Positions 3,069 through 32,000 are shown, numbered from the stretch's first letter. The stretch is 32,000 bases of DNA from Methanothermobacter marburgensis str. Marburg (GCF_000145295.1 NC_014408.1:390001-422000); one strand, 5' to 3'. Made by a program: numbers and translations. The notes: generated from the sequence alone by a model not told the origin.

Positions 3069-3848
3069 ATGACAAGAGTGATTACAGTCGCATCAGGTAA
3101 GGGAGGTGTGGGGAAGACAACCATCACTGCTAACCTGGGTGTTGCCCTCTCAACCTACGGTGAAAGGGTTGTTGTGCTTGACGCTGATATAGCAATGGCA
3201 AACCTTGAACTCATCCTGGGGATGGAGGGAAAATCCGTCACACTTCATGATGTTCTCGCAGGTAACGCTTCAATTGAGGACGCGGTTTATGAGGGTCCCA
3301 ATGGCGTGAGGGTGGTACCTGCCGGTATATCACTTGAGGGGCTCAGAAACGTTAAACTTGACCGCCTTGAGGATGCCCTTGCATACCTCATAGAGGATAC
3401 TGATATACTCCTTATAGATGCTCCTGCAGGTCTTGAGAAGGACGCTGTTGCCGCACTTGCAGCTGCAGATGAACTTCTGCTTGTCACAACACCCGAGGTG
3501 CCATCAATAAGTGACGCCCTCAAAACAAAGATCGTCGCAAGTAAACTTGGCATCAACATAATAGGTGTTGTCATAAACCGTGAGCAGTACGATAAAACCT
3601 TCCTGAGTGTTGAGGAGGTTGAGACAATACTTGAGGTTCCTGTTATTGCGGTGATACCTGATGATCCCGAGGTGAGCAGGGCAGCAGCCTTTGGTGAGCC
3701 CATAGTCATTAAGAATCCAAAGTCACCTGCAAGCAATTCCCTGATGAAACTTGCAGCGGACCTCATCGGTGAGGACTATCAGCCAATAGAACCAGACAAG
3801 CAGGGTGTTATCGCCAAACTCATAAGCGGTTTGATGGGGCGAAGGTGA
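3069..3848 (+). CDS. minD: MinD/ParA-family ATPase (archaeal MinD-like), 259 aa
   Basis: Deviant Walker [11 protein letters not shown] at the N-terminus, VLDAD Walker A' and LLIDAPAG Walker B. GGAGG (3057-3061) sits 7 nt before ATG 3069. Confidence 0.85.
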
Positions 3849-10795: not shown

Positions 10796-11518
10796 TTATT
10801 CTTTCATCCTGTTTTTTATTCTCCGGAGGACACCCTTAAGTGTATGGTCCTCCCTTGCTGTTCTGAAGGCCCTCCCGGTCACATTCCTGAACACCCTCGA
10901 GGCAACCCTCTCCTTGTGTGGGGGAATGTCAATCAATGAGAGTATCTCGTCCATCTCATCCACGAGAAGTTTTTTTTCAACTCCTGAGGCATCCTCAAGT
11001 CCTTCGCAGTCAAAATCTCTTTTTTTGAATATCTCATAAAATATTATTGCGGCGGCGTGGGTTATATTCATTATGGGGTATTCCCTATCTGTGGGGATAC
11101 TCACCACCATGTCGCATAGGCCGAGCTCCCTGTTTGAGAGCCCATCCCCCTCACGCCCAAAGAGGATGAAGGTCCTTGAGGAGGGGTTGATGGCTGAGGC
11201 GAGCTGGGATGGTCTCAGGGGTATTCTGTCAACGTTGTAGCTCCCTCCAGGCACACCGGTTGTTCCAACAAGAAAGTCAGGTTCAAGGTTTTCTATCATC
11301 TCATCAAGGGTCTGGTAGATGATGGCATCCTCAACAAGGTCCCTGGCATGCATTGCCTGGTAATAGGCCTCATCCTCAAGGCTGCAGGGGTTTATGAGGA
11401 TGAGATTTTGAAGGCCGAAGTTCTTCATGGCCCTCGCAAGGAAACCCACATTCCCAGGGGTTTCAGGTTCCACAAAGACGACCCCAATGTTTCTGGAGAG
11501 GAGCTCGTAAACTTCCAT
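10796..11518 (-). CDS. SPOUT-class (SpoU/TrmH/TrmJ-like) RNA 2'-O-methyltransferase, 240 aa
   Basis: VVFVEPETPGNVGFLARAMKNFG.. at the N-terminus, FILFGREGDGLS and SIPT....P.MNITHAAAI at the knot region; these are typical TrmJ/SpoU motifs. GAGGGGG SD lies 6 nt before ATG 11518. Confidence 0.8.
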   Translation of the reverse strand: MEVYELLSRNIGVVFVEPETPGNVGFLARAMKNFGLQNLILINPCSLEDEAYYQAMHARDLVEDAIIYQTLDEMIENLEPDFLVGTTGVPGGSYNVDRIPLRPSQLASAINPSSRTFILFGREGDGLSNRELGLCDMVVSIPTDREYPIMNITHAAAIIFYEIFKKRDFDCEGLEDASGVEKKLLVDEMDEILSLIDIPPHKERVASRVFRNVTGRAFRTAREDHTLKGVLRRIKNRMKE

Positions 11519-11529
11519 ATCCAGCCCCC

Positions 11530-12999
11530 TCAGTCATCGGAATAGGCCATGTCGAGGAGTTCAAGGATGTTCATAACCTTCACGTCCCCAAGACCCTCCT
11601 TCTCAAGGGAATCCTTTATATGGAGCTGGCAGAAGGGGCATATTGTTATCACGGCGTCAACATTGAGTTTGCGTATCATCTCAGCCTTCTTCTTTCCCAG
11701 GCTTTCGGCTATCTCAGGTTTACCGGATTTCACACCTCCACCTGATCCACAGCACTGCCCCTGTTTTTCCATTTCAACAAATTCAAGGCCCGGGATGCTG
11801 TTAAGTATCTTCCTTGGCTCCAGTTTAACGCCCTGACCCCTCAGAAGGTGGCAGGGATCATGGTAGGTCACCCTCATATTGACAGGCTTCATTTTAATGT
11901 CGTCGATCCGATCTGCCAGGAATTCGCTGATGTCAAGGACGTTCAGTTCAACGCCATAACGGGGATAGTCCTTCTTGAGGGTGGCTCCGCAGCCAGCACA
12001 GACTGTTATTATGGTGTCATACCCCTCGAGGGCCCTCCTGTTTCTCTCAACAAGATCCTCAACAATGTCGAGCTGTCCTGTCCTTATCATGGGTGATCCG
12101 CAGCACACCTGACCATCAGGGACGTCAACCTCGAAGCCGTGTTCTCTCAGCACCCTCAGAAGTGCCATTCCAACATCAGGCATCCTGTAGTCGACCAGGC
12201 ATCCTGTGAAGAAACCTATCCTTGAGCCCGGGTTCTGCCCCACTGATTCAATGAAACCCTTTCCTATATGGTCAACGGATCTGCCTGTCTCTGAAATGAG
12301 TTTTTTGATCTTTCTGTGGGCATCGAGGGGTCCTGCGCCCTCTCTGCATGCCATGGCCCTCAGCTTTTCAATCGCATCCCCGGGTACATTGAGTTCCTTG
12401 GGGCATACCTCGGCACATTTACCGCAGGTGGTACAGCAGTAAAGTCCTTCCTCCACACCCCCAGCGGCTCTTTCGGCCTCATCACGTGGATCGAAGGCAA
12501 ATTTTGATATGTACCTCATGAAGTAGGGTCCTGCATACTCTGTGCTCTCCTTTATAACAGGGCATGAACTTATGCAGGAGAAACACTCTATGCATCCCCT
12601 CAGTTTTTTGGTGTCCTGGTAGTCCTCTGGTTTGATCCTCTGGATGCCCCTTGCTTCTGACTGGAGGTAGAGGCCCATGGCCCTCACCTTATCCTCTATT
12701 TCGCTCCTGTCAACCATCAGGTCCTTTATAACCGGGAGGTCCACCGGCTCAATAACGGCACCATCCTCCACCTCTGCCCTGCATGCCAGGACAACCTCTC
12801 CGTTCATCTTAACAGCACATGAACCGCACTGCCCTGCCCTGCATGAGCTTCTGAAGGCAATATTGGCATTATACATTTTATTTATAAGCTGAAGGGCATC
12901 AAGAACCTTCATTTTTTCCTTTGAAGGTATATCATAACTTTCAAGATGTGGTTTCTCATCTACACCTGGTTCAAACCTTAAAACCTTAACATTTATCAT
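11530..12999 (-). CDS. tfrB: Thiol:fumarate reductase subunit B-like iron-sulfur protein (SdhB/FrdB-like N-half fused to HdrD-like CCG-domain half), 489 aa
   Basis: 2Fe-2S motif CRAGQCGSCAVKMNG, ferredoxin-type CIECFSCISSCP and CCTTCGKCAEVCP, and two CCG motifs (QVCCGSP, QCCGSGGG). This fusion architecture is the one described for Methanothermobacter TfrB. No flavoprotein (tfrA) gene is adjacent. Confidence 0.75.
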   Translation of the reverse strand: MINVKVLRFEPGVDEKPHLESYDIPSKEKMKVLDALQLINKMYNANIAFRSSCRAGQCGSCAVKMNGEVVLACRAEVEDGAVIEPVDLPVIKDLMVDRSEIEDKVRAMGLYLQSEARGIQRIKPEDYQDTKKLRGCIECFSCISSCPVIKESTEYAGPYFMRYISKFAFDPRDEAERAAGGVEEGLYCCTTCGKCAEVCPKELNVPGDAIEKLRAMACREGAGPLDAHRKIKKLISETGRSVDHIGKGFIESVGQNPGSRIGFFTGCLVDYRMPDVGMALLRVLREHGFEVDVPDGQVCCGSPMIRTGQLDIVEDLVERNRRALEGYDTIITVCAGCGATLKKDYPRYGVELNVLDISEFLADRIDDIKMKPVNMRVTYHDPCHLLRGQGVKLEPRKILNSIPGLEFVEMEKQGQCCGSGGGVKSGKPEIAESLGKKKAEMIRKLNVDAVITICPFCQLHIKDSLEKEGLGDVKVMNILELLDMAYSDD

Positions 13000-23808: not shown

Positions 23809-23831
23809 TCCCTGATTAATACGTGGTCTTA

Positions 23832-24329
23832 ATGAAGAGGGTTCTTGATGCATCTGCATTCATAAACGGATACATACCTGAGGGCACTGAAAACTACACC
23901 GTGAAGTCTGTAACAGATGAGATAAGGGACTTCAAATCGGTCATGGTCCTTGAGAGGGCACTCAGTGATGGCAGACTCAGAATAATGGAACCTGACCCTG
24001 AGAGCATGAGGGAGGTGGATGAGGTCACCAGCAGATCAGGGGATGCCATGAGACTCTCCAGTACAGACAGGGAGGTTATAGGGCTTGCCGTTTCACTCAG
24101 AAAGAGGGGCGAGGTAACTGTAATCACCGATGACTATACGATACAGAACACCCTCAGAATTCTTGGAATAGAGTTCAGCAGTGTCCTCACATCGGGTATA
24201 AAGGAGACCTATCAGTGGAGGAAGATATGCACTGGATGCAGGAGGGTGTACCCTCAGGACTACCAGTTCGGGGAATGTGAGATATGTGGCTCAGAGATAA
24301 AGAAGAAAAGATACAGGTCCCGCCGTTAG
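23832..24329 (+). CDS. nob1: PIN-domain endonuclease with C-terminal zinc ribbon (archaeal Nob1-like), 165 aa
   Basis: N-terminal VLDASAFI (PIN acidic residue), ITDDYTIQN, and a C-terminal CTGC..(17)..CEIC ribbon plus basic tail. This is the architecture of archaeal Nob1. ATG 23832 lies ~25-30 nt downstream of a TATA-like box with no SD, which suggests a leaderless mRNA. GTG 23823 is the track start. Confidence 0.7.
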
Positions 24330-24360: not shown

Positions 24361-25482
24361 ATGAGAATAGGCGTGGTTGTCCACGGACCACAGATAGTTG
24401 ACTCAGGATACGCAGCAAAACTTATAGATTTTCTAAAAAAATATGGGGAGGTCAGGGCAAGACTGGGGGGCACCATGGGGCGGACCGCGGTCTATGACGC
24501 CCACCTTGAGGATGTTATAGACATCTCAGAGAAGAGACTCCCAAGTGAATCGGTTGACCTCTTTGCAGATGAGGGCGCCGGCATTGTTGTCCTCATGAAT
24601 TACGGAAAGTCCCGTATCACAGGGCATGGATTTGGATACAAGGTTTTCCAGAGATCAGAAAAAAAACCGCCAGTTGTTCAGATAGAAAGACCAGGTGAAC
24701 CCGATGGAAGTGTTGTGGCATGGAAGAGGGAGGCCGAGTCATTCGCAGAGAAACTGGCACGTGAACTTGAACTCGAGATGGTGGATCCAGAGGAGGTATG
24801 CAGGGAGATCTTCCATGGAGAGCCATGCGGTGAACAGAAGCCTGACAGAAGGGAGTACCGGAGGCTCGTGGGTGTCTCAGAGAATGAGAACATATTCGTA
24901 AATGGTATAGTAGTGGGGGTCTCAACGTCAGACGACGTCACCCTCGTCGCAGAGGACGGCGTGATCACTGAGATAATAGGTGGGAAGATAAAGGAACACG
25001 GGGTTGAAAAGCTTGGAAGGGTTAACCTCAAGGACGCGGTAGTGAAGACGGGACTTCTCCGCCGCTCCGAGGTAAAACCCAGAAAGGTGAAGGTAAGGGA
25101 AAATAATAAAAAGAAGTACCGGGTTTCGTTCTTAAACCACGCAGCAGAGGACATATACATGCTCCATGACTCTGATCTTGTTGTCACGGTTGGAGATGAT
25201 ACAACGCTCGTGGCTGCAGATATACTCTACAGATTCGATGTTCCCATAATAGGGATAACAGACGGTGATATAGATAGGGTGGTTAAGAAGGGCTTCAAAT
25301 GCGCAGATTCGATCATAATAGAGTTTGAGGAGGGATGGGACGATATAGTTGGTGAAAGAATCCACAGGGAGCTCTTCAGGGGTAAAAAAACCATTGAAAC
25401 CAATGATTTGGAAACTTTTAAAAGGGATCTACTACAGATTATAGATAATATAGGTGCAAGCTACACCGTGAGATACACCTAA
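24361..25482 (+). CDS. Conserved methanogen protein of unknown function (possibly DUF2117 family), 373 aa
   Basis: Clean ORF with GGGTGATC SD directly before ATG 24361. The N-terminus is [18 protein letters not shown] and the C-terminal part has [20 protein letters not shown] (acidic DxD-like motif). The family name is uncertain. Confidence 0.6.
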
Positions 25483-25504
25483 ACCGATAAAAAGAGGTGT
25501 GGAA

Positions 25505-26491
25505 TTGGATTTAGATGATATCATCCATTCCCTTAAAAATTTTGAGGGTGTAACAAGAAAACGGCCAATAAGAAATATAGTTTCTATTCTTAATGATGCA
25601 TTCAGTGTCTCGGGAAAAACACATCTCGGTTACGGTGATGATGCATCGGCCATCAGGATTGGCGACGGAAAACTTCTTTTACTGGCAGCAGATGGAATAT
25701 GGGGGCGTCTGATGGAGGCTGACCCCCACTGGGCCGGTTACTGTTCTGTACTTGTTAATGTTAACGATATTGCAGCCATGGGCGGTAAACCCGTGGGCAT
25801 GGTCAACGTTCTCTCAATTAAATCACGGGAGACCTGTTACAGTGTGATGGAGGGTATAAGAGAGGGGGCAGAGAAGTTCGGGGTCCCAATGGTGGGGGGC
25901 CACGTGCACCCTGACACACCCTACGATGCACTGGATGTTTCAATTGCAGGTATAGCATCGGAGGATGCTCTCATAACAAGCTGTGACGCAGAACCCGGTG
26001 ACAGGGTTATAGTGGGCATAGACCTCGATGGAAGGCCACACCCATCATTTCCCCTTAACTGGGACACAACCACCCATAAAACACCTGAAGAGGTGCAGTT
26101 CCAGATTGAGGTAATGTCCATCATCGCAGAAAGAAAGCTGGTAACTGCAGGTAAGGATATAAGCAACCCGGGGACCCTTGGAACACTGGGGATGCTGCTT
26201 GAGGCATCGGATGTGGGCGCACGGGTGGAACTGGAATCAATACCACGTAACAGATCAGTTAAGTGGGAGGACTGGCTTCGAATGTACCCTGGCTCAGGTT
26301 TTGTGCTGACAGCACGCCCAGAAAATGTTGCTGAATGTATTGAACTGCTCGAGTCTGCCGGAATAACCGCATCAGACGCCGGGGAGATAGTATCCGAAAG
26401 AAAACTCCACTTAGTCCATGATAATGATGAAAGGGTCCTCTTTGACTTTGAAAGGGACATCATAACAGGTGTGATAGAAGAAAAAATATGA
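25505..26491 (+). CDS. mmp2: Methanogenesis marker protein 2 (AIR-synthase/PurM-like ATP-utilising fold), 328 aa
   Basis: PurM/ThiL/HypE-type N-domain motif GYGDDASAI and DIAAMGGKP, plus a C-terminal PurM-like domain. GAGG (25494-25497) lies 7 nt before TTG 25505; GTG 25499 (track start) overlaps the SD. Confidence 0.75.
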
Positions 26492-26501
26492 GGGAGATCT
26501 G

Positions 26502-28043
26502 ATGTTTGTTAAGGTTAATGGACTGGATGTTGAACTCCCGGAGGGGGCCACAGTGAGGGATGCCATCGATGCTACAGGAGCCCCCTATGTGAAAGGCGCC
26601 CTTGTGGGCCTCATAAGCGGCACAAGGGAACTTGAAAGGACAATAGACACATACCGGATCAAAACAACAGCAGGAAGCATCCTGATTGAACTGCTCCCTG
26701 AGGAAGCACCTGAAATCGTTGAGACATGGAGGGAGGTCTACAGCAACCTTGAAAACCTCCGTATAAGGTGGACAACCCCATCCGAGATTTCAATGGGACC
26801 CCTGAAAACAGAACTGGAGCCGTCAAGGAAGGAATTCTTCTACGACGAGAATGAGGTTATAATGAGCCTCTCAGGGTTCAGCCCGGATTCAACCCACATA
26901 ATAATCTCCAGGGACCCCCATTCATCAGTATACGGCGCCCCGGCTGAGAACAGGGGTGTTTTTGCAAGGGTAACCGGCGGGGGAAGAACCATTGAGCGGC
27001 TGACAGACCGCGACGTGATAAGGTCAGTGGAACCAGTTGTTGAGAGAAAAAGCATAGTTGAGAGCGCCGCAGTGACAGACCTTGAAACACCACTTGAGGA
27101 TGGAAACCAGATATTCACCTACGTTAAGGTAAAACCATCCCACGAGTCCCCCCAGTCTGTTGAACACTTCTTCACAATGGTGGAGGAGGGGAAACTGAGG
27201 GTCGACTATGAGGCCAACTCATTCATAGGTTTCTACTCCCTTCAGGGGATAAAAAAGGATCCTGAAAAAATAGCAAAGAGAAACAGGGGCACAGTGACCC
27301 TTAGGAACACAGGAAGGGGTGCTGGAAGGGTTTACATATACAGGGAGGACAGGGTTTCAACACCATCCCACAACCTCATAGGAAACGTTACAGATGGAAT
27401 GGAACTGGTGGATATAGCAGGGGAAGGGGACCACATCACGGTGGAGTGCGAACCCGGCAGGATAATGACAGTATCCATGACCCAGAAGGAAGCAGAGGAA
27501 TACCTTAAAGGATACGGTGTCGAGCAGATACGGGACGGCATAATGGTTGACGATGCAATCGTTGTGGCCCAGGACCCACCCTACACCATGGACATACTCA
27601 AGGAGGGAAGGGTCAGAACAGTGGGCATAGAGGCCGATAAAATCCTGGAGGTTGAACTTGACCCTGATGCGCCAAGATCCTCATGGTACTTCCGCAGACT
27701 CACAGGCCTCATCGACACACCCATCGGATCCCTCAAGGTACACTTCGCCTTCCCAGGAATGAAGGTGGTGATGTTTGAGGGTGACAGATCCCTGGCAAAG
27801 GGCCTTGTACCGGAGAAAACACCTGAAAACTGCGTTAAAAAGGGCAGCATTGGCATAACAAACATGTCAAGGAGACACATAGGTATGGTTGGTGTCAGAC
27901 TCGAGGACAACGATGAATACGGCCCAACAGGGGAACCATTCAACGGTACCAACATAATAGGCAGAATCATAGAGGGCCTTGAGAATGTTGAAAAATTCAA
28001 AGAGGGGGACACAGTCTATGTCCGGGAAAGAAAAAAACCATGA
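26502..28043 (+). CDS. mmp3: Methanogenesis marker protein 3, 513 aa
   Basis: Size, position after mmp2, and the N-terminal [22 protein letters not shown] opening match my memory of the Mmp3 (UPF0288) family. ATG 26502 is preceded by GAGGGAG. Confidence 0.7.
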
Positions 28044-28464
28044 GGAATCAACAAGAATGATAATACTTGGGCCGTCATCAAGGCTGAGCTCATCAGAACT
28101 TGTCCAGAGGCTCCACCTCCTTGGACTGCCACTGACCATAAAATCAACATGTTACGGTGCGCTGGTGCATGGGGACACAGAGACTGTGATGGAGGCTGTC
28201 AGAAAAATACGCAGCCTGGACCCGACCAACATATTCACAAAGGAGAGGGGGTTCCCACCTGGGGACCCCAGGAGATGCAGAGGACACAGAGGAGCAGCAA
28301 GGGAGGGTTACCATCAGCTTGAAAAGGAATTCAAACTACTTGGATATGTGGGCGAGGCCCTTGAAAGGCCCCAGAAGGCCGAACCCGAAAAAAAGGAGAA
28401 GGTTTCTGTTGATGAATTTCGCGATGTAGTTGAGAGGAGTCTGAAATCCAGACAGAAAACATAG
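28018..28464 (+). CDS. mmp6: Methanogenesis marker protein 6, 148 aa (135 aa if ATG 28057)
   Basis: The core [40 protein letters not shown]...IRSLDP..IF.KERG....[10 protein letters not shown] fits the Mmp6 pattern as I recall it. The start is ambiguous: ATG 28018 (26-nt overlap with mmp3) or ATG 28057. Confidence 0.65.
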
Positions 28465-28475
28465 GGCTGATTGAA

Positions 28476-28847
28476 ATGAAAATAACTTCATCATCCACTG
28501 GAGAGGAACTCAAGGAACTTGGAATGTGTATACATGAACTTGTAAGTCGTCTTCCCCTCACAATAAGGAGCCGGGAAGCAAAGGGTCTTCGAATAGAGGA
28601 CGGCAAGGTGATCGATGACAGCTACACAGGACCCGTACTTGAAAAGGTCCTTGAATCAGGTGAGATAGCAAGGGAGACACCTGAGAGGGGACCCTACAAG
28701 GGGATACCCGTGGTCGTGGTACCCCTGAAGGAGAAGGGTGAGGTTCTCTGTGCGGTGGGAATCGTTGATGCCACAAAGGGCCTCTTCACAGACATGGTTG
28801 AAATAGCCAGAAGACCCCAGGAGGGAGACAGGGGGGAATTCTATTGA
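28476..28847 (+). CDS. Small conserved protein of unknown function embedded in the mmp cluster (possibly DUF2111), 123 aa
   Basis: ORF starts 11 nt after the mmp6 stop, and its stop TGA 28845-28847 overlaps the mmp5 TTG start. I recognise no motif; the sequence ends ..[29 protein letters not shown]... Confidence 0.55.
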
Positions 28848-29290
28848 AGATAGCGATATTTCCACCAAATTCACTTATACTTGCAGATCTTGTTGAAAGA
28901 AGGGGACATGAGCCCCTTGTAATCCAGAAAGAAATCAGACAGAAGGTCACAGACCCTGAAATTGATTCACCACCCTTCAACATAACCGAGGAGGACCCGA
29001 TAAGGGGCCTGAAGTATGCGGCAATAGAGGTTCCCTCAGGTGTGAGGGGGAGAATGGCAATCCTTGGGCCCCTCATAGAGGATGCGGATGCCGCCATAAT
29101 AATGGAGGAAGCCCCCTTTGGTTTTGGATGCATAGGATGCGCAAGGACCAATGAACTCTGCGTATTCCAGCTCAGAAAGAAGGGCATACCCACACTTGAA
29201 CTGAAATATCCCACAACAAGGGAAGAGACAATAGATGTGGTTAACAGGATAAACAAATTCCTGGACGAACTGGAGGCTCAAAATGGTTAA
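28844..29290 (+). CDS. mmp5: Methanogenesis marker protein 5, 148 aa
   Basis: The opening [25 protein letters not shown] and the Cys motif [14 protein letters not shown] match my memory of Mmp5. TTG 28844 overlaps the upstream stop (TTGA). Confidence 0.65.
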
Positions 29291-30521
29291 AATAGCCCAG
29301 ATTTCATGCGGAACCGACTACAGCGGTGTTCAGAAGGAAATTGAAAAGGCAGCGAGGACTTTCGGGGCCGAAATAGTGATCCCCGAGGCCGACCTTGACT
29401 ACATAGACGAGGCCTATGAAAAATTTGGGTTCAACTGTGCCAGTTCAAGCCTGAAACTCATGATAGCAAGGGCAATGTCAATCGTTGAGGGCAAAACAGA
29501 TGCCGACGCGGTTTTCATAGCAACCTGCTTCAGGTGTGCAGAGGGAGCCCTTGTAAGGAATGAGATAAGGAGGTTCATACAGCAGAACACAAGGCTTCCG
29601 GTTGTAACCTACTCATTCACAGAGAGAACAAAGGCCGATGAGCTCTTCATACGTATGGAGGCGCTCTCAACAATAGTGGCAAGGAAGAGCATACTTGCAA
29701 GGGAGAAACAGGAGGGCCTCACCCTTGGAATAGATTCAGGTTCAACAACCACCAAGGTAGTGCTGATGGAGGATAACGAGGTCATAGGAACAGGATGGCT
29801 TCCCACAACAGATGTCCTTGGCTCCGCAGAGAAGGGTATAGAGGAGGCCCTCGCAGGTACAGGTTACACGATTAAGGACCTTGATGGGATAGGAGTCACA
29901 GGTTACGGCAGGTTAACCATAGGGAAACATTACGGGGCCGACCTCATACAGGAGGAGCTCAGCGTGAACTCCAAGGGTGCAGTGTTTCTGGCAGACCACC
30001 AGAAGGGGGAGGCAACGGTCCTGGATATAGGGGGTATGGACAACAAGGTCATAACCGTCAACGATGGAATACCCGACAACTTCACCATGGGGGGTATCTG
30101 CGCCGGTGCATCATGGCGTTTCCTGGACATAACAGCCAGGAGGCTTGGAGTGGAGATAGATGAACTTGGAAGCCTGGCAATGAAGGCCGATTACGAGAAG
30201 GCGATGCTCAACAGTTACTGCATAGTCTTTGGTATACACGACCTTGTAACCGCACTTGCAGCGGGAGTTTCAAGGGAGGATGCAGCAGCCGCGGCATGCC
30301 ACTCGGTGGCCGAACAGGTATATGAGCAGCAGCTCCAGGAGATAGATGTGAGGGAACCCCTCATACAGGTGGGTGGAACATCCCTTATAGAGGGCCTTGT
30401 TAAGGCGGTAAGTGATATTCTGGGAGGTATCGATGTCATCGTACCCCCGTATTCACAGCACATAGGCGCAGTTGGAGCGGCCCTCCTTGTTTCTGGAATG
30501 AAAGACATCAGTGAGGGTTAA
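29283..30521 (+). CDS. mmp15: Methanogenesis marker protein 15 (BadF/BadG/BcrA/BcrD-HgdC-type ATPase domain with N-terminal Cys-containing domain), 412 aa
   Basis: Acetate/sugar-kinase-fold phosphate-1 motif [14 protein letters not shown], later [10 protein letters not shown] and VGGTS, and an N-terminal domain with [14 protein letters not shown] (29272-29276) lies 6 nt before ATG 29283, which overlaps the mmp5 end by 8 nt. Confidence 0.75.
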
Positions 30522-30522
30522 A

Positions 30523-31014
30523 ATGGGGATAAATGTTGAGTGCTACGACCCCCGGGGTGCAGAGGTCTATGAGATAATAGCCCGCCAGGTTCTTCAGGAT
30601 CTCCAGCTTGCAAGGGCAGTTGATGACCTGAGAATATGGGTTGATCCTCGAGAGCCGGTCTTCATCATAGCGGTTAAGACACAGAGGACCTCTGAGCCGA
30701 TTTACCTTGAGGACATGGTGGAGATGGAGGTTGATAAGGCCACCGGAGCAGTCCACCTGAGGATAAGGGATGAGACGTACCTTCCACAGCTACTTGAAAG
30801 GCTCTGGGAGACACAGGGGCGTGGCGGGGTACGGCAGCCATCCCGATTTGAGGTGGTGGTGGAGGACCCCATCTCGGATATCAGCGGAATGACGGTCCGC
30901 GACCCCTCAATGAACCTCGAGAAGAGGGTGTACGATGCAATATTCCGTATAATACCCGAGGGATTCCGGGTTATAAGGGACCTTTCAGAGGATAACATAA
31001 TAGCCCTTGGATGA
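30523..31014 (+). CDS. mmp17: Methanogenesis marker protein 17, 163 aa as read (about 185 aa if a +1 frame continuation to 31081 is real)
   Basis: Position after mmp15 and size class. GAGGG (30513-30517) lies 5 nt before ATG 30523; GTG 30511 is the track start. See the finding on the C-terminal frame break at 31009-31014. Confidence 0.6.
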   Translation: MGINVECYDPRGAEVYEIIARQVLQDLQLARAVDDLRIWVDPREPVFIIAVKTQRTSEPIYLEDMVEMEVDKATGAVHLRIRDETYLPQLLERLWETQGRGGVRQPSRFEVVVEDPISDISGMTVRDPSMNLEKRVYDAIFRIIPEGFRVIRDLSEDNIIALG

Positions 31015-31085
31015 TACCGATGAGGTGCTCATGGATGAATGGATTTTAAAGGTCAGGGAGATAATAGACGATATGAGGTGAAAAC

Positions 31086-31952
31086 ATGCCCGATCAGAGA
31101 CAGACACGCTTTGCCCACATAACAAAGGGTCAGCCCTGCTTCAATGAGAAACTGCATGACAGGGTTGGAAGGATCCATCTGCCCATCGCACCCCGCTGCA
31201 ATATCCACTGCAAGTTCTGCACAAGGGATATCAGTGAATGCGAAAACCGGCCAGGGGTCACTGCAAGGATCATGACAGCTGAGGATGCAGTAAAGCACGT
31301 TGAGAAGGTTAAGAGCGAGATGCCCATAAGTGTAATAGGGGTCGCAGGACCCGGCGATGCCCTTGCAAATGAGGAGACCTTCGAGTTCTTCAAAAAGGCC
31401 AGCAAGAAGTTCCCGGATCTCCTTAAATGCCTCAGCACCAACGGTCTGCTCCTTCCAGATAAGGCTGATGAACTGGCAGAGATTGGTGTTAACACAGTCA
31501 CAGTAACCGTGAACGCCATTGACCCTGACATAGGTGAGAAGATATACTCCTTTGTTATCTACAAGGATAAGGTCTACCATGGAAGGGAGGCCTTCGAGGT
31601 TCTCTCAAGGAACCAGCTTGAGGGTATAGAGAAACTTGCAGAGAAGGGTATCATTGTTAAGGTCAACAGTGTACTCATACCTGGCCTCAACGATGAACAC
31701 ATAGTCGACATTGCAAGGGAGGTTAAAAAGAGGGGAGCCTCCCTCATGAACGTTATACCACTCATACCGATGGGTGAGATGGAGGACTACCCACGGCCAA
31801 CCTGTGAGGAGATCGAGAGGGTCAGGAATGAGGTTGAAAAGATAATACCCGTATTCAGGGCATGCACACAGTGCAGGGCAGACGCCTACGGCATCCCAGG
31901 GAAAAAGGGTGCCGACAAGCACCTTGACATGACACCAGCGAGCCACTACTGA
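31086..31952 (+). CDS. nifB: NifB-type radical SAM enzyme (stand-alone radical SAM domain form), 288 aa
   Basis: N-terminal QPCFNEKLHDRVGRIHLPIAPRCNIHCKFCTR (the HPCY-like motif plus the CxxxCxxC radical SAM cluster site), TVTVNA, and C-terminal ACTQCRADAYG. Together these are the NifB signature. GAGGTGA (31075-31081) lies 4 nt before ATG 31086. Confidence 0.85.
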   Translation: MPDQRQTRFAHITKGQPCFNEKLHDRVGRIHLPIAPRCNIHCKFCTRDISECENRPGVTARIMTAEDAVKHVEKVKSEMPISVIGVAGPGDALANEETFEFFKKASKKFPDLLKCLSTNGLLLPDKADELAEIGVNTVTVTVNAIDPDIGEKIYSFVIYKDKVYHGREAFEVLSRNQLEGIEKLAEKGIIVKVNSVLIPGLNDEHIVDIAREVKKRGASLMNVIPLIPMGEMEDYPRPTCEEIERVRNEVEKIIPVFRACTQCRADAYGIPGKKGADKHLDMTPASHY

Positions 31953-31967
31953 AAATCCCGTGATAAC

Positions 31968-32000
31968 CATGAAGACACTGGAATGGAAGGACAACCGACT
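31968..32000 (+). CDS. 5' end (11 codons) of a probable aIF-2B/MtnA-family (ribose-phosphate isomerase-like) gene, truncated by the window
   Basis: ATG 31968 lies 15 nt after the nifB stop with GTGAT upstream. MKTLEWKDNR(L) resembles the M..L.W.D..L opening of the eIF-2B alpha/beta/delta-like isomerase family. Only 33 nt are visible. Confidence 0.35.

Follow-up and report, generated by a model that had tools for sequence, protein, structure and literature searches.

Why should a gene for NifB, a protein of nitrogenase cofactor biosynthesis, lie at the end of an array of methanogenesis marker (mmp) genes? The question is raised by a stretch of 32,000 nucleotides from Methanothermobacter marburgensis str. 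Marburg (NC_014408.1, 390001–422000), referred to here as the window, in whose coordinates all positions are given; nifB and the gene array that it ends are on the plus strand. The nifB gene occupies positions 31086–31952, downstream of mmp17. The answer that we consider probable is that nifB closes the conserved part of the mmp array and encodes a housekeeping stand-alone NifB, which supplies the L-cluster-like centres of the methyl-coenzyme M reductase (MCR) activation complex besides nitrogenase. Both the gene order and this hypothesis have been published (2025) and are rediscovered here: the M. marburgensis mmp genes are described as clustered ‘MTBMA_c04360-c04410, followed by nifB’, and NifB has been proposed as the builder of the [8Fe-9S-C] clusters of the complex (Ramírez-Amador et al., Nature 2025, PMC12176620). 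No published synteny survey of nifB and the mmp genes was found in the literature searched, so that the order-wide conservation and the cases from Bathyarchaeota and Archaeoglobaceae presented below are a modest addition.

Identity of the nifB gene product

The open reading frame at 31086–31952 encodes 288 residues (aa), its ATG being the first start codon past an in-frame stop. It is a genuine stand-alone NifB, i.e. a radical-SAM (S-adenosylmethionine) enzyme of the L-cluster or NifB-co synthase type. A first-pass annotation made from the sequence had described it as complete and stand-alone, and this holds down to the exact coordinates and all three motifs, namely CNIHCKFC (C38/C42/C45), KGQPCFNEKLHDRVGRIHLP and CTQCRADAYG; the upstream motif as quoted there, QPCFNEKLHDRVGRIHLP, was found in the frame. 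Over the full length, 265 of the 288 residues (92%, E ~1e-186) are identical to NifB from M. thermautotrophicus (MtNifB; PDB 7BI7, 7JMA, 7JMB), while the Methanothrix protein 6Y1X is matched with E = 1.7e-85. The CxxxCxxC signature reads C38-N-I-H-C42-K-F-C45 (PF04055, E = 1e-24), and the radical-SAM domain alone was recognised in a Pfam scan.

None of the 23 differences from MtNifB falls on C18, H24, H31, C38, C42, C45, C115, C260 or C263. The ligands of the K1 and K2 clusters (C18, H24, H31, C115, C260 and C263) are therefore the same as in 7BI7/7JMB, and their division between K1 and K2 we take to be that of the structure papers. In an alignment of nine NifB sequences C18, H31, C115, C260 and C263 are invariant, and position 24 is His in eight and Cys in Methanothrix, in agreement with the published H/C variation. 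Each of the two clusters is held by two Cys and one His (Saini et al., 2023, citing the MtNifB structure).

The nifB equivalog profile TIGR01290 gave 308.7 bits, below its cutoff of 343.65, with profile positions 9–282 of 441 covered; the runner-up family, MoaA, reached just 77.7 bits. We attribute the sub-cutoff score to the missing positions 283–441; these presumably correspond to the C-terminal NifX-like domain, absent from stand-alone NifBs of archaea. The shortfall is outweighed by the 92% identity to crystallised MtNifB, reportedly characterised as a functional NifB homologue. Synthesis of the [8Fe-9S-C] cluster has been reported for this orthologue (literature cited in PMC12176620 and in a 2026 review), and the same activity is predicted for the window protein.

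Two C-to-G changes at 31129 and 31133, in nifB codons 15–16, turn the sequence A-H-P-C (‘HPC’) into G-Q-P-C. His is found at position 16 in 83 of 84 other fetched NifB loci; the residue is presumably not a cluster ligand, and H16Q may be a sequencing error.

The mmp17–nifB junction

The conservation of the gene order was surveyed by a scan with a NifB alignment over GTDB species, each represented by a single genome; the best 80 loci were kept with 10-kb flanks, the mmp, mcr and nif genes around nifB were placed with phmmer/hmmsearch, and selected proteins were checked against NCBIfam. Extra loci outside the 80 were taken from Mmp17-anchored look-ups. NifB served as the scan anchor because Mmp17 is too divergent (mean column identity 30–36%) and has no conserved stretch of 7–10 residues; a profile search for diverse Mmp17 proteins recovered Methanobacteriales alone, and more distant members were drawn from a representative library and from cluster look-ups.

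The first-pass annotation had asked for such a survey, and the linkage proved not to be confined to the genus. In 49 of the 50 assessable Methanobacteriales loci, spread over four genus-level groups, mmp17 lies directly upstream of nifB on the same strand: in Methanothermobacter (4/4), Methanobacterium/-aceae (14/14), Methanobrevibacter (27/28) and Methanosphaera-like genomes (4/4), with identities to the window NifB down to 60%. The sole exception is a contig of a Methanobrevibacter metagenome-assembled genome (MAG). Adjacency kept at this frequency is not due to chance. The junction is as stable as those of the mmp core, where mmp15–mmp17 (46/47), mmp5–mmp15 (44/44) and mmp3–mmp6 (42/42) are adjacent almost throughout, whereas mmp2–mmp3 (25/39) and nifB–mtnA (21/42) are often broken. 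In M. cuticularis mmp17 and nifB remain together though 7.5 kb have been inserted between mmp15 and mmp17.

A full Methanobrevibacter-type cluster from the PIN-domain gene to mmp17–nifB, with a NifB 69% identical to that of the window, was also found in CAVDAS010000016.1, labelled ‘Bacteroidaceae bacterium’. It is almost certain that a methanogen contig has contaminated this bin or is the origin of a wrong label.

Outside Methanobacteriales, nifB is linked to MCR-activation genes at the loci L056, L057 and L080. The Bathyarchaeota chromosome OY970340.1 (L056, 5695–12731) carries mmp3-mmp6-mmp5-mmp15-mmp17-nifB-mmp7-mmp8, tightly packed, with atwA divergent (on the minus strand) upstream and mcrA/G/C 7–10 kb downstream. 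Here nifB stands between mmp17 and the gene of the cluster-binding Mmp7. In the Archaeoglobaceae MAG SKYB18 (L057, 970–5750) nifB overlaps the start of mmp14 (TIGR03285, 611 bits), and convergent to this pair are mmp8 and a gene for an A2-like double ABC ATPase (296 bits, under the A2 cutoff). A second Bathyarchaeota locus holds mcrC, mcrAGB, nifB, DUF2117, mmp2, mmp3, mmp6, mmp17, mmp7 and mmp15 within 20 kb. In Bathyarchaeota and in Archaeoglobaceae, nifB has come to lie with MCR-activation genes independently. On a Methanothermococcus contig nifB and mmp17 are convergent neighbours.

Elsewhere mmp17 has other partners. It is followed by mmp7 on a contig of GCA_902158745.1, in an operon headed by atwA such as has been reported for Methanosarcina. 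The same succession was seen on a Halobacteriota contig, in another MAG and on a Joint Genome Institute (JGI) metagenome contig, where mtr genes come next (mmp17-mmp7-mtr). At a Nezhaarchaeota locus with mmp3-mmp6-mmp17 and mcr genes neither mmp7 nor nifB adjoins mmp17. Hence nifB is a conserved member of the mmp cluster within Methanobacteriales and not a general rule among MCR-bearing archaea. Three radical-SAM genes considered as candidates did not turn out to be nifB. That of M. jannaschii (L77117.1; L090, 10001–11993), two genes past mmp17 (MJ0802), scored 17 bits as NifB; the one beside mmp7 in L092 is Mmp10, and the one past mcrBAG in L009 is not NifB. The M. jannaschii protein, which is encoded near mmp17, mmp2 and mmp15, has 286 aa and matches no specific NCBIfam family.

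Many NifBs are unlinked to mmp genes, and some of them stand in nitrogenase-type clusters. Eight genomes of Chloroflexales share the order nifH-nifB-nifD-nifK with one Bathyarchaeia genome and an unclassified archaeon (L078, 9140–13546; L084; L064–L085, Chloroflexaceae). In a rough neighbour-joining tree without bootstrap these nifHBDK-linked NifBs fall on a separate branch. Whether the mmp-linked NifBs make up a clade had been raised in the first-pass annotation; in that tree they are not a single clade and follow taxonomy.

These observations bear on one alternative, that the arrangement is inherited synteny with no meaning for MCR: any essential non-nitrogenase role of NifB would then lie in another L-cluster or Fe-S enzyme, and the Methanobacteriales would have kept an ancestral neighbourhood. 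The tree is what vertical inheritance of a chance arrangement predicts, and the linkage is missing from most other orders sampled. Yet the mmp17–nifB junction outlasts rearrangements on both sides, nifB stands by MCR-activation genes in three distant contexts (mmp17/mmp7; mmp14/mmp8; mcr with DUF2117), and, with the nifHBDK clusters included, the conserved neighbourhood of nifB appears to track its client. We therefore regard inherited synteny as unlikely.

In the window itself, mmp17 (30523–31014; TIGR03291, 220.7 bits, profile positions 2–162 of 185) is shortened at residue 163 by a frameshift. Its start was placed at ATG 30523 as in relatives, the longest open reading frame beginning at GTG 30511. 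Alignments with four Methanothermobacter loci (96–97% DNA identity) trace the frameshift to a single extra A at 31014 that is absent from all four; close by, at 31010, T has been replaced by G. Over 8.7 kb of the cluster, aligned with three relatives, no other internal indel is shared; the window DNA is ~97% identical to unclassified Methanothermobacter genomes. The closest Mmp17 homologues have 185 aa and end in ..VCTDEVLRDEWILKAREIIDDMR, and the corresponding tail of the window gene is displaced into the +1 frame at 31015–31081, where it ends in ..TDEVLMDEWILKVREIIDDMR before the stop. With this tail the last ~20 residues are lost, among them W173, which is invariant in the Mmp17 alignment. 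Either the sequence is in error here or the strain carries a lesion of its own, in a gene of an operon whose members resisted deletion in M. acetivorans (2026 preprint).

The extra A accounts for an ambiguity in the first-pass annotation, which had placed nifB either 71 or 4 nt after mmp17, and both figures are right in substance. From the mmp17 stop (31012–31014) to the nifB ATG there are 71 nt, whereas mmp17 read without the extra A ends at 31079–31081 and leaves a gap of 4 nt, like the mmp17 of 185 aa in the four close relatives. The nifB Shine-Dalgarno sequence GAGGTGA (31075–31081), 4 nt before the ATG and the same in these relatives, overlaps the last codon and the stop of the mmp17 tail and so lies within the preceding frame, as had been noted. 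A separate nifB promoter was considered and found no support, as a consensus scan, weak evidence in itself, gave no TATA-like match on the plus strand between 29295 and 32000, a range that includes 1.8 kb before nifB. Taken from the sequence, the 4-nt gap of the relatives, the position of the Shine-Dalgarno sequence and the missing TATA-like box suggest that nifB probably shares a transcript with mmp17 and is coupled to it in translation.

A proposed role for NifB in MCR activation

In M. maripaludis the activation complex is made up of McrC, Mmp7, Mmp17, Mmp3, A2 and DUF2098, and three clusters in it were modelled as [8Fe-9S-C] (PMC12176620); clusters of this kind had been mentioned in the first-pass annotation. 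Its assignment of Mmp3 and Mmp17 as their recipients is contradicted, since the published structure has FeSI and FeSII on McrC and FeSIII on Mmp7, at the Mmp7/Mmp17 interface, the three together forming a path to F430. One of the grounds for the NifB hypothesis of PMC12176620 is that nifB has been reported to be essential in M. acetivorans, where a deletion was not obtained even with ammonium and nifB expression did not respond to ammonium (Saini et al., 2023). A NifB homologue was already listed among the methanogen-specific genes by Kaster et al. (2011), and the link between NifB and MCR activation is repeated in a 2026 review.

The following mechanism is consistent with these data. The radical-SAM cluster of NifB, together with S-adenosylmethionine, would fuse the K1 and K2 [4Fe-4S] clusters around a SAM-derived carbide to give the [8Fe-9S-C] L-cluster, as established for the orthologue. 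The product would feed nitrogenase cofactor assembly and also the three L-cluster-like centres on McrC and Mmp7. These centres would serve as the low-potential electron path in the ATP-dependent complex, by which F430 is reduced to Ni(I). That NifB supplies the McrC/Mmp7 clusters is the best reading we can offer for why nifB would be expressed with the mmp genes. The supply of clusters for MCR activation, as the first-pass annotation had put it, fits the conservation of the junction and the recurrence of linkage in L056, L057 and L080; the linkage is not general. The extension of the idea, that it would explain nifB in non-diazotrophic methanogens, also fits the evidence, although this hypothesis is already in print (PMC12176620).

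Might NifB instead serve nitrogenase alone, its place after mmp17 merely giving constitutive expression? MtNifB is a functional nitrogenase cofactor biosynthesis homologue, according to the title of Fay et al. (2015). The same arrangement recurs in gut Methanobacteriales, in Methanobrevibacter and Methanosphaera-like genomes, and most of these are not known to have nitrogenase. Methanothermobacter presumably carries a nif operon (nifHDKEN) elsewhere in its genome. NifB was present in all 245 methanogen proteomes analysed by Saini et al. (2023), nitrogenase in just ~67% of them, which leaves about one third with NifB but without nitrogenase. Given also the non-deletable nifB of M. acetivorans, grown even with ammonium, we consider a role for nitrogenase alone quite improbable.

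The centres might also be built by Mmp proteins such as Mmp2, Mmp15, Mmp5 and Mmp6, with NifB as a bystander or back-up. The cluster does encode an AIR-synthase/SelD-like Mmp2 and a BcrAD-type ATPase, Mmp15, and the roles of these additional Mmp proteins were left open in PMC12176620. None of the four is a radical-SAM enzyme. To our knowledge NifB is the only carbide-inserting enzyme, which counts against assembly by Mmp proteins. Furthermore, M. acetivorans is complemented by the NifB of a methanogen that has no nitrogenase, and diazotrophy is sustained by it (Saini et al., 2023); this NifB must therefore make a genuine L-cluster. In view of this, we hold assembly by the Mmp proteins to be highly improbable.

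Beyond the supply of clusters, NifB could be a dedicated, operon-encoded maturase with Mmp17 as its docking partner, handing the L-cluster to the surface-exposed FeSIII site at the Mmp7/Mmp17 interface. If so, selection would keep the mmp17–nifB junction, and the Bathyarchaeota order mmp17-nifB-mmp7 would be understandable. We put this forward tentatively, as an unlikely reading. Mmp17 of a Methanothermobacter relative with the gene intact, modelled with AlphaFold (pLDDT 97.5), matched only chain G (Mmp17) of PDB 8S7V, with a TM-score of 0.91. A cluster carrier of the NifX/NafY type was considered for Mmp17, but the fold search with this confident model found no carrier fold and lends no support to such a role.

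Several points weigh against a supply of clusters by NifB to the activation complex. In the surveyed loci of the MCR-bearing lineages Methanocella, Methanoperedens, Methanomethylicia, Methanosarcinales and Methanomicrobia, the full 10-kb flanks of nifB contain no mmp or mcr gene, and the mmp17 locus of M. jannaschii is without NifB. The co-transcription with mmp17 proposed above is deduced from the spacing of the genes. The window holds neither mcrC nor mmp7, the genes of the actual cluster-binding proteins, and no paper directly showing NifB-dependent assembly of the clusters of the activation complex was found in the literature searched. Finally, as Methanothermobacter presumably has its nif operon elsewhere in the genome, service to nitrogenase would be reason enough for this genus to retain nifB.

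What is observed is which enzyme the gene encodes, how the genes are ordered and that this order is conserved; for the delivery of clusters by NifB, already proposed in the literature, the survey adds comparative support in that the junction is kept order-wide, gut genera included, and that nifB has joined such genes independently elsewhere. Should the proposal be true, carbide-cluster chemistry, once held to be unique to nitrogenase, would underlie almost all biological methane formation, and NifB would be a possible target for methane mitigation.

The surrounding array and known systems

The same-strand array begins with a PIN-domain gene (23823–24329; PF17146, 3e-16; NF009145, 289 bits), found at the same place in relatives and in most Methanobacteriales loci. 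It is followed by a DUF2117 gene (24361–25482; PF09890, 1.9e-132) of an archaeal family that accompanies mmp genes; of 37 Methanobacteriales loci, 36 have it next to mmp2, and in L056 and L080 it is found in the vicinity of nifB and mmp genes. The AIR-synthase-like mmp2 (methanogenesis marker 2; 25499–26491; TIGR03267, 539 bits, cutoff 365) precedes mmp3 (26502–28043; TIGR03268, 745.9 bits), which encodes a subunit of the MCR activation complex according to PMC12176620. Many Methanobrevibacter loci have 0.6–1.8 kb inserted between these two genes. The start of mmp6 (28018–28464; TIGR03272, 168.7 bits) was placed as in relatives, where the protein has 148 aa and its gene overlaps the end of mmp3; the longest open reading frame begins at 27979. 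The DUF2111 gene that comes next (28476–28847; PF09884, 8.4e-36) is present in the Methanothermobacter and Methanobacterium loci, and none was detected between mmp6 and mmp5 in the Methanobrevibacter or Methanosphaera-like loci (L021–L055). The array continues with mmp5 (28844–29290; TIGR03271, 252.3 bits) and with mmp15 (29283–30521; TIGR03286, 757.2 bits), encoding a BcrAD/BadFG-type ATPase, and thence to mmp17 and nifB.

Sixteen nt past nifB an mtnA-family isomerase gene begins (31969–32000, reading MKTLEWKDNR..) and runs off the window. Its start is the same as that of a gene at 11446–12375 of a Methanothermobacter locus (L001), which matches TIGR00512 (methylthioribose-1-phosphate isomerase) with 371 bits. 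The gene follows nifB directly in Methanothermobacter and Methanobacterium and is often displaced in Methanobrevibacter. Speculatively, the enzyme could salvage 5'-deoxyadenosine or MTA, by-products of radical-SAM chemistry. From the PIN-domain gene to the mtnA-family gene, neighbours are separated by −26 to +31 nt (overlaps and gaps).

Of the proteins that make up the MCR activation complex, Mmp3 and Mmp17 are encoded in the window. Genes for McrA/B/G/C/D, Mmp7/8/10/14 and A2 (atwA) were not found in the window with tblastn queries and family scans. As the first-pass annotation had observed, nifH, nifD, nifK, nifE and nifN are likewise missing from the window, as judged by NCBIfam family scans of large open reading frames and by tblastn with NifH/D/K. 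The sole ‘nif-like’ signal came from 3069–3848, which encodes an archaeal MinD-type ATPase (TIGR01969, 397 bits) with weak P-loop matches to the NifH and CfbC models. Scans for tRNA genes and Rfam families gave no match in the window.

Among the closest known systems is the M. marburgensis cluster of PMC12176620, which is the same feature, an mmp array with nifB directly downstream, under the same functional reading. There the arrangement is given in one sentence and for one species; in the window, mmp17 is frameshifted. The enzyme itself resembles MtNifB in its 288 aa, the lack of a NifX domain, the CxxxCxxC signature and the K1/K2 ligand positions, and differs from it by the 23 substitutions, among them H16Q in the near-universal HPC motif.

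The core order mmp3-mmp6-mmp5-mmp15-mmp17 (26502–31081) is shared with L005, L092, L056 and all Methanobacteriales loci, and with the ‘MCR activation operon’ of Methanosarcina and Methanomicrobia (atwA-mmp3-mmp6-mmp5-mmp15-mmp17-mmp7; L005, L092). That operon begins with atwA and ends with mmp7, with nifB elsewhere in the genome, whereas the window array is without atwA and mmp7 and has DUF2117, mmp2, DUF2111 and nifB in addition. A different parallel is offered by the nifH-nifB-nifD-nifK clusters of Chloroflexaceae, the Bathyarchaeia genome ‘Bathy6’ and archaeon BMS3Abin16, in which a stand-alone NifB of ~50% identity lies within the operon of its presumed client, as it may in the window. Those clusters differ in that NifB would serve a nitrogenase or a nitrogenase-like NifHDK.

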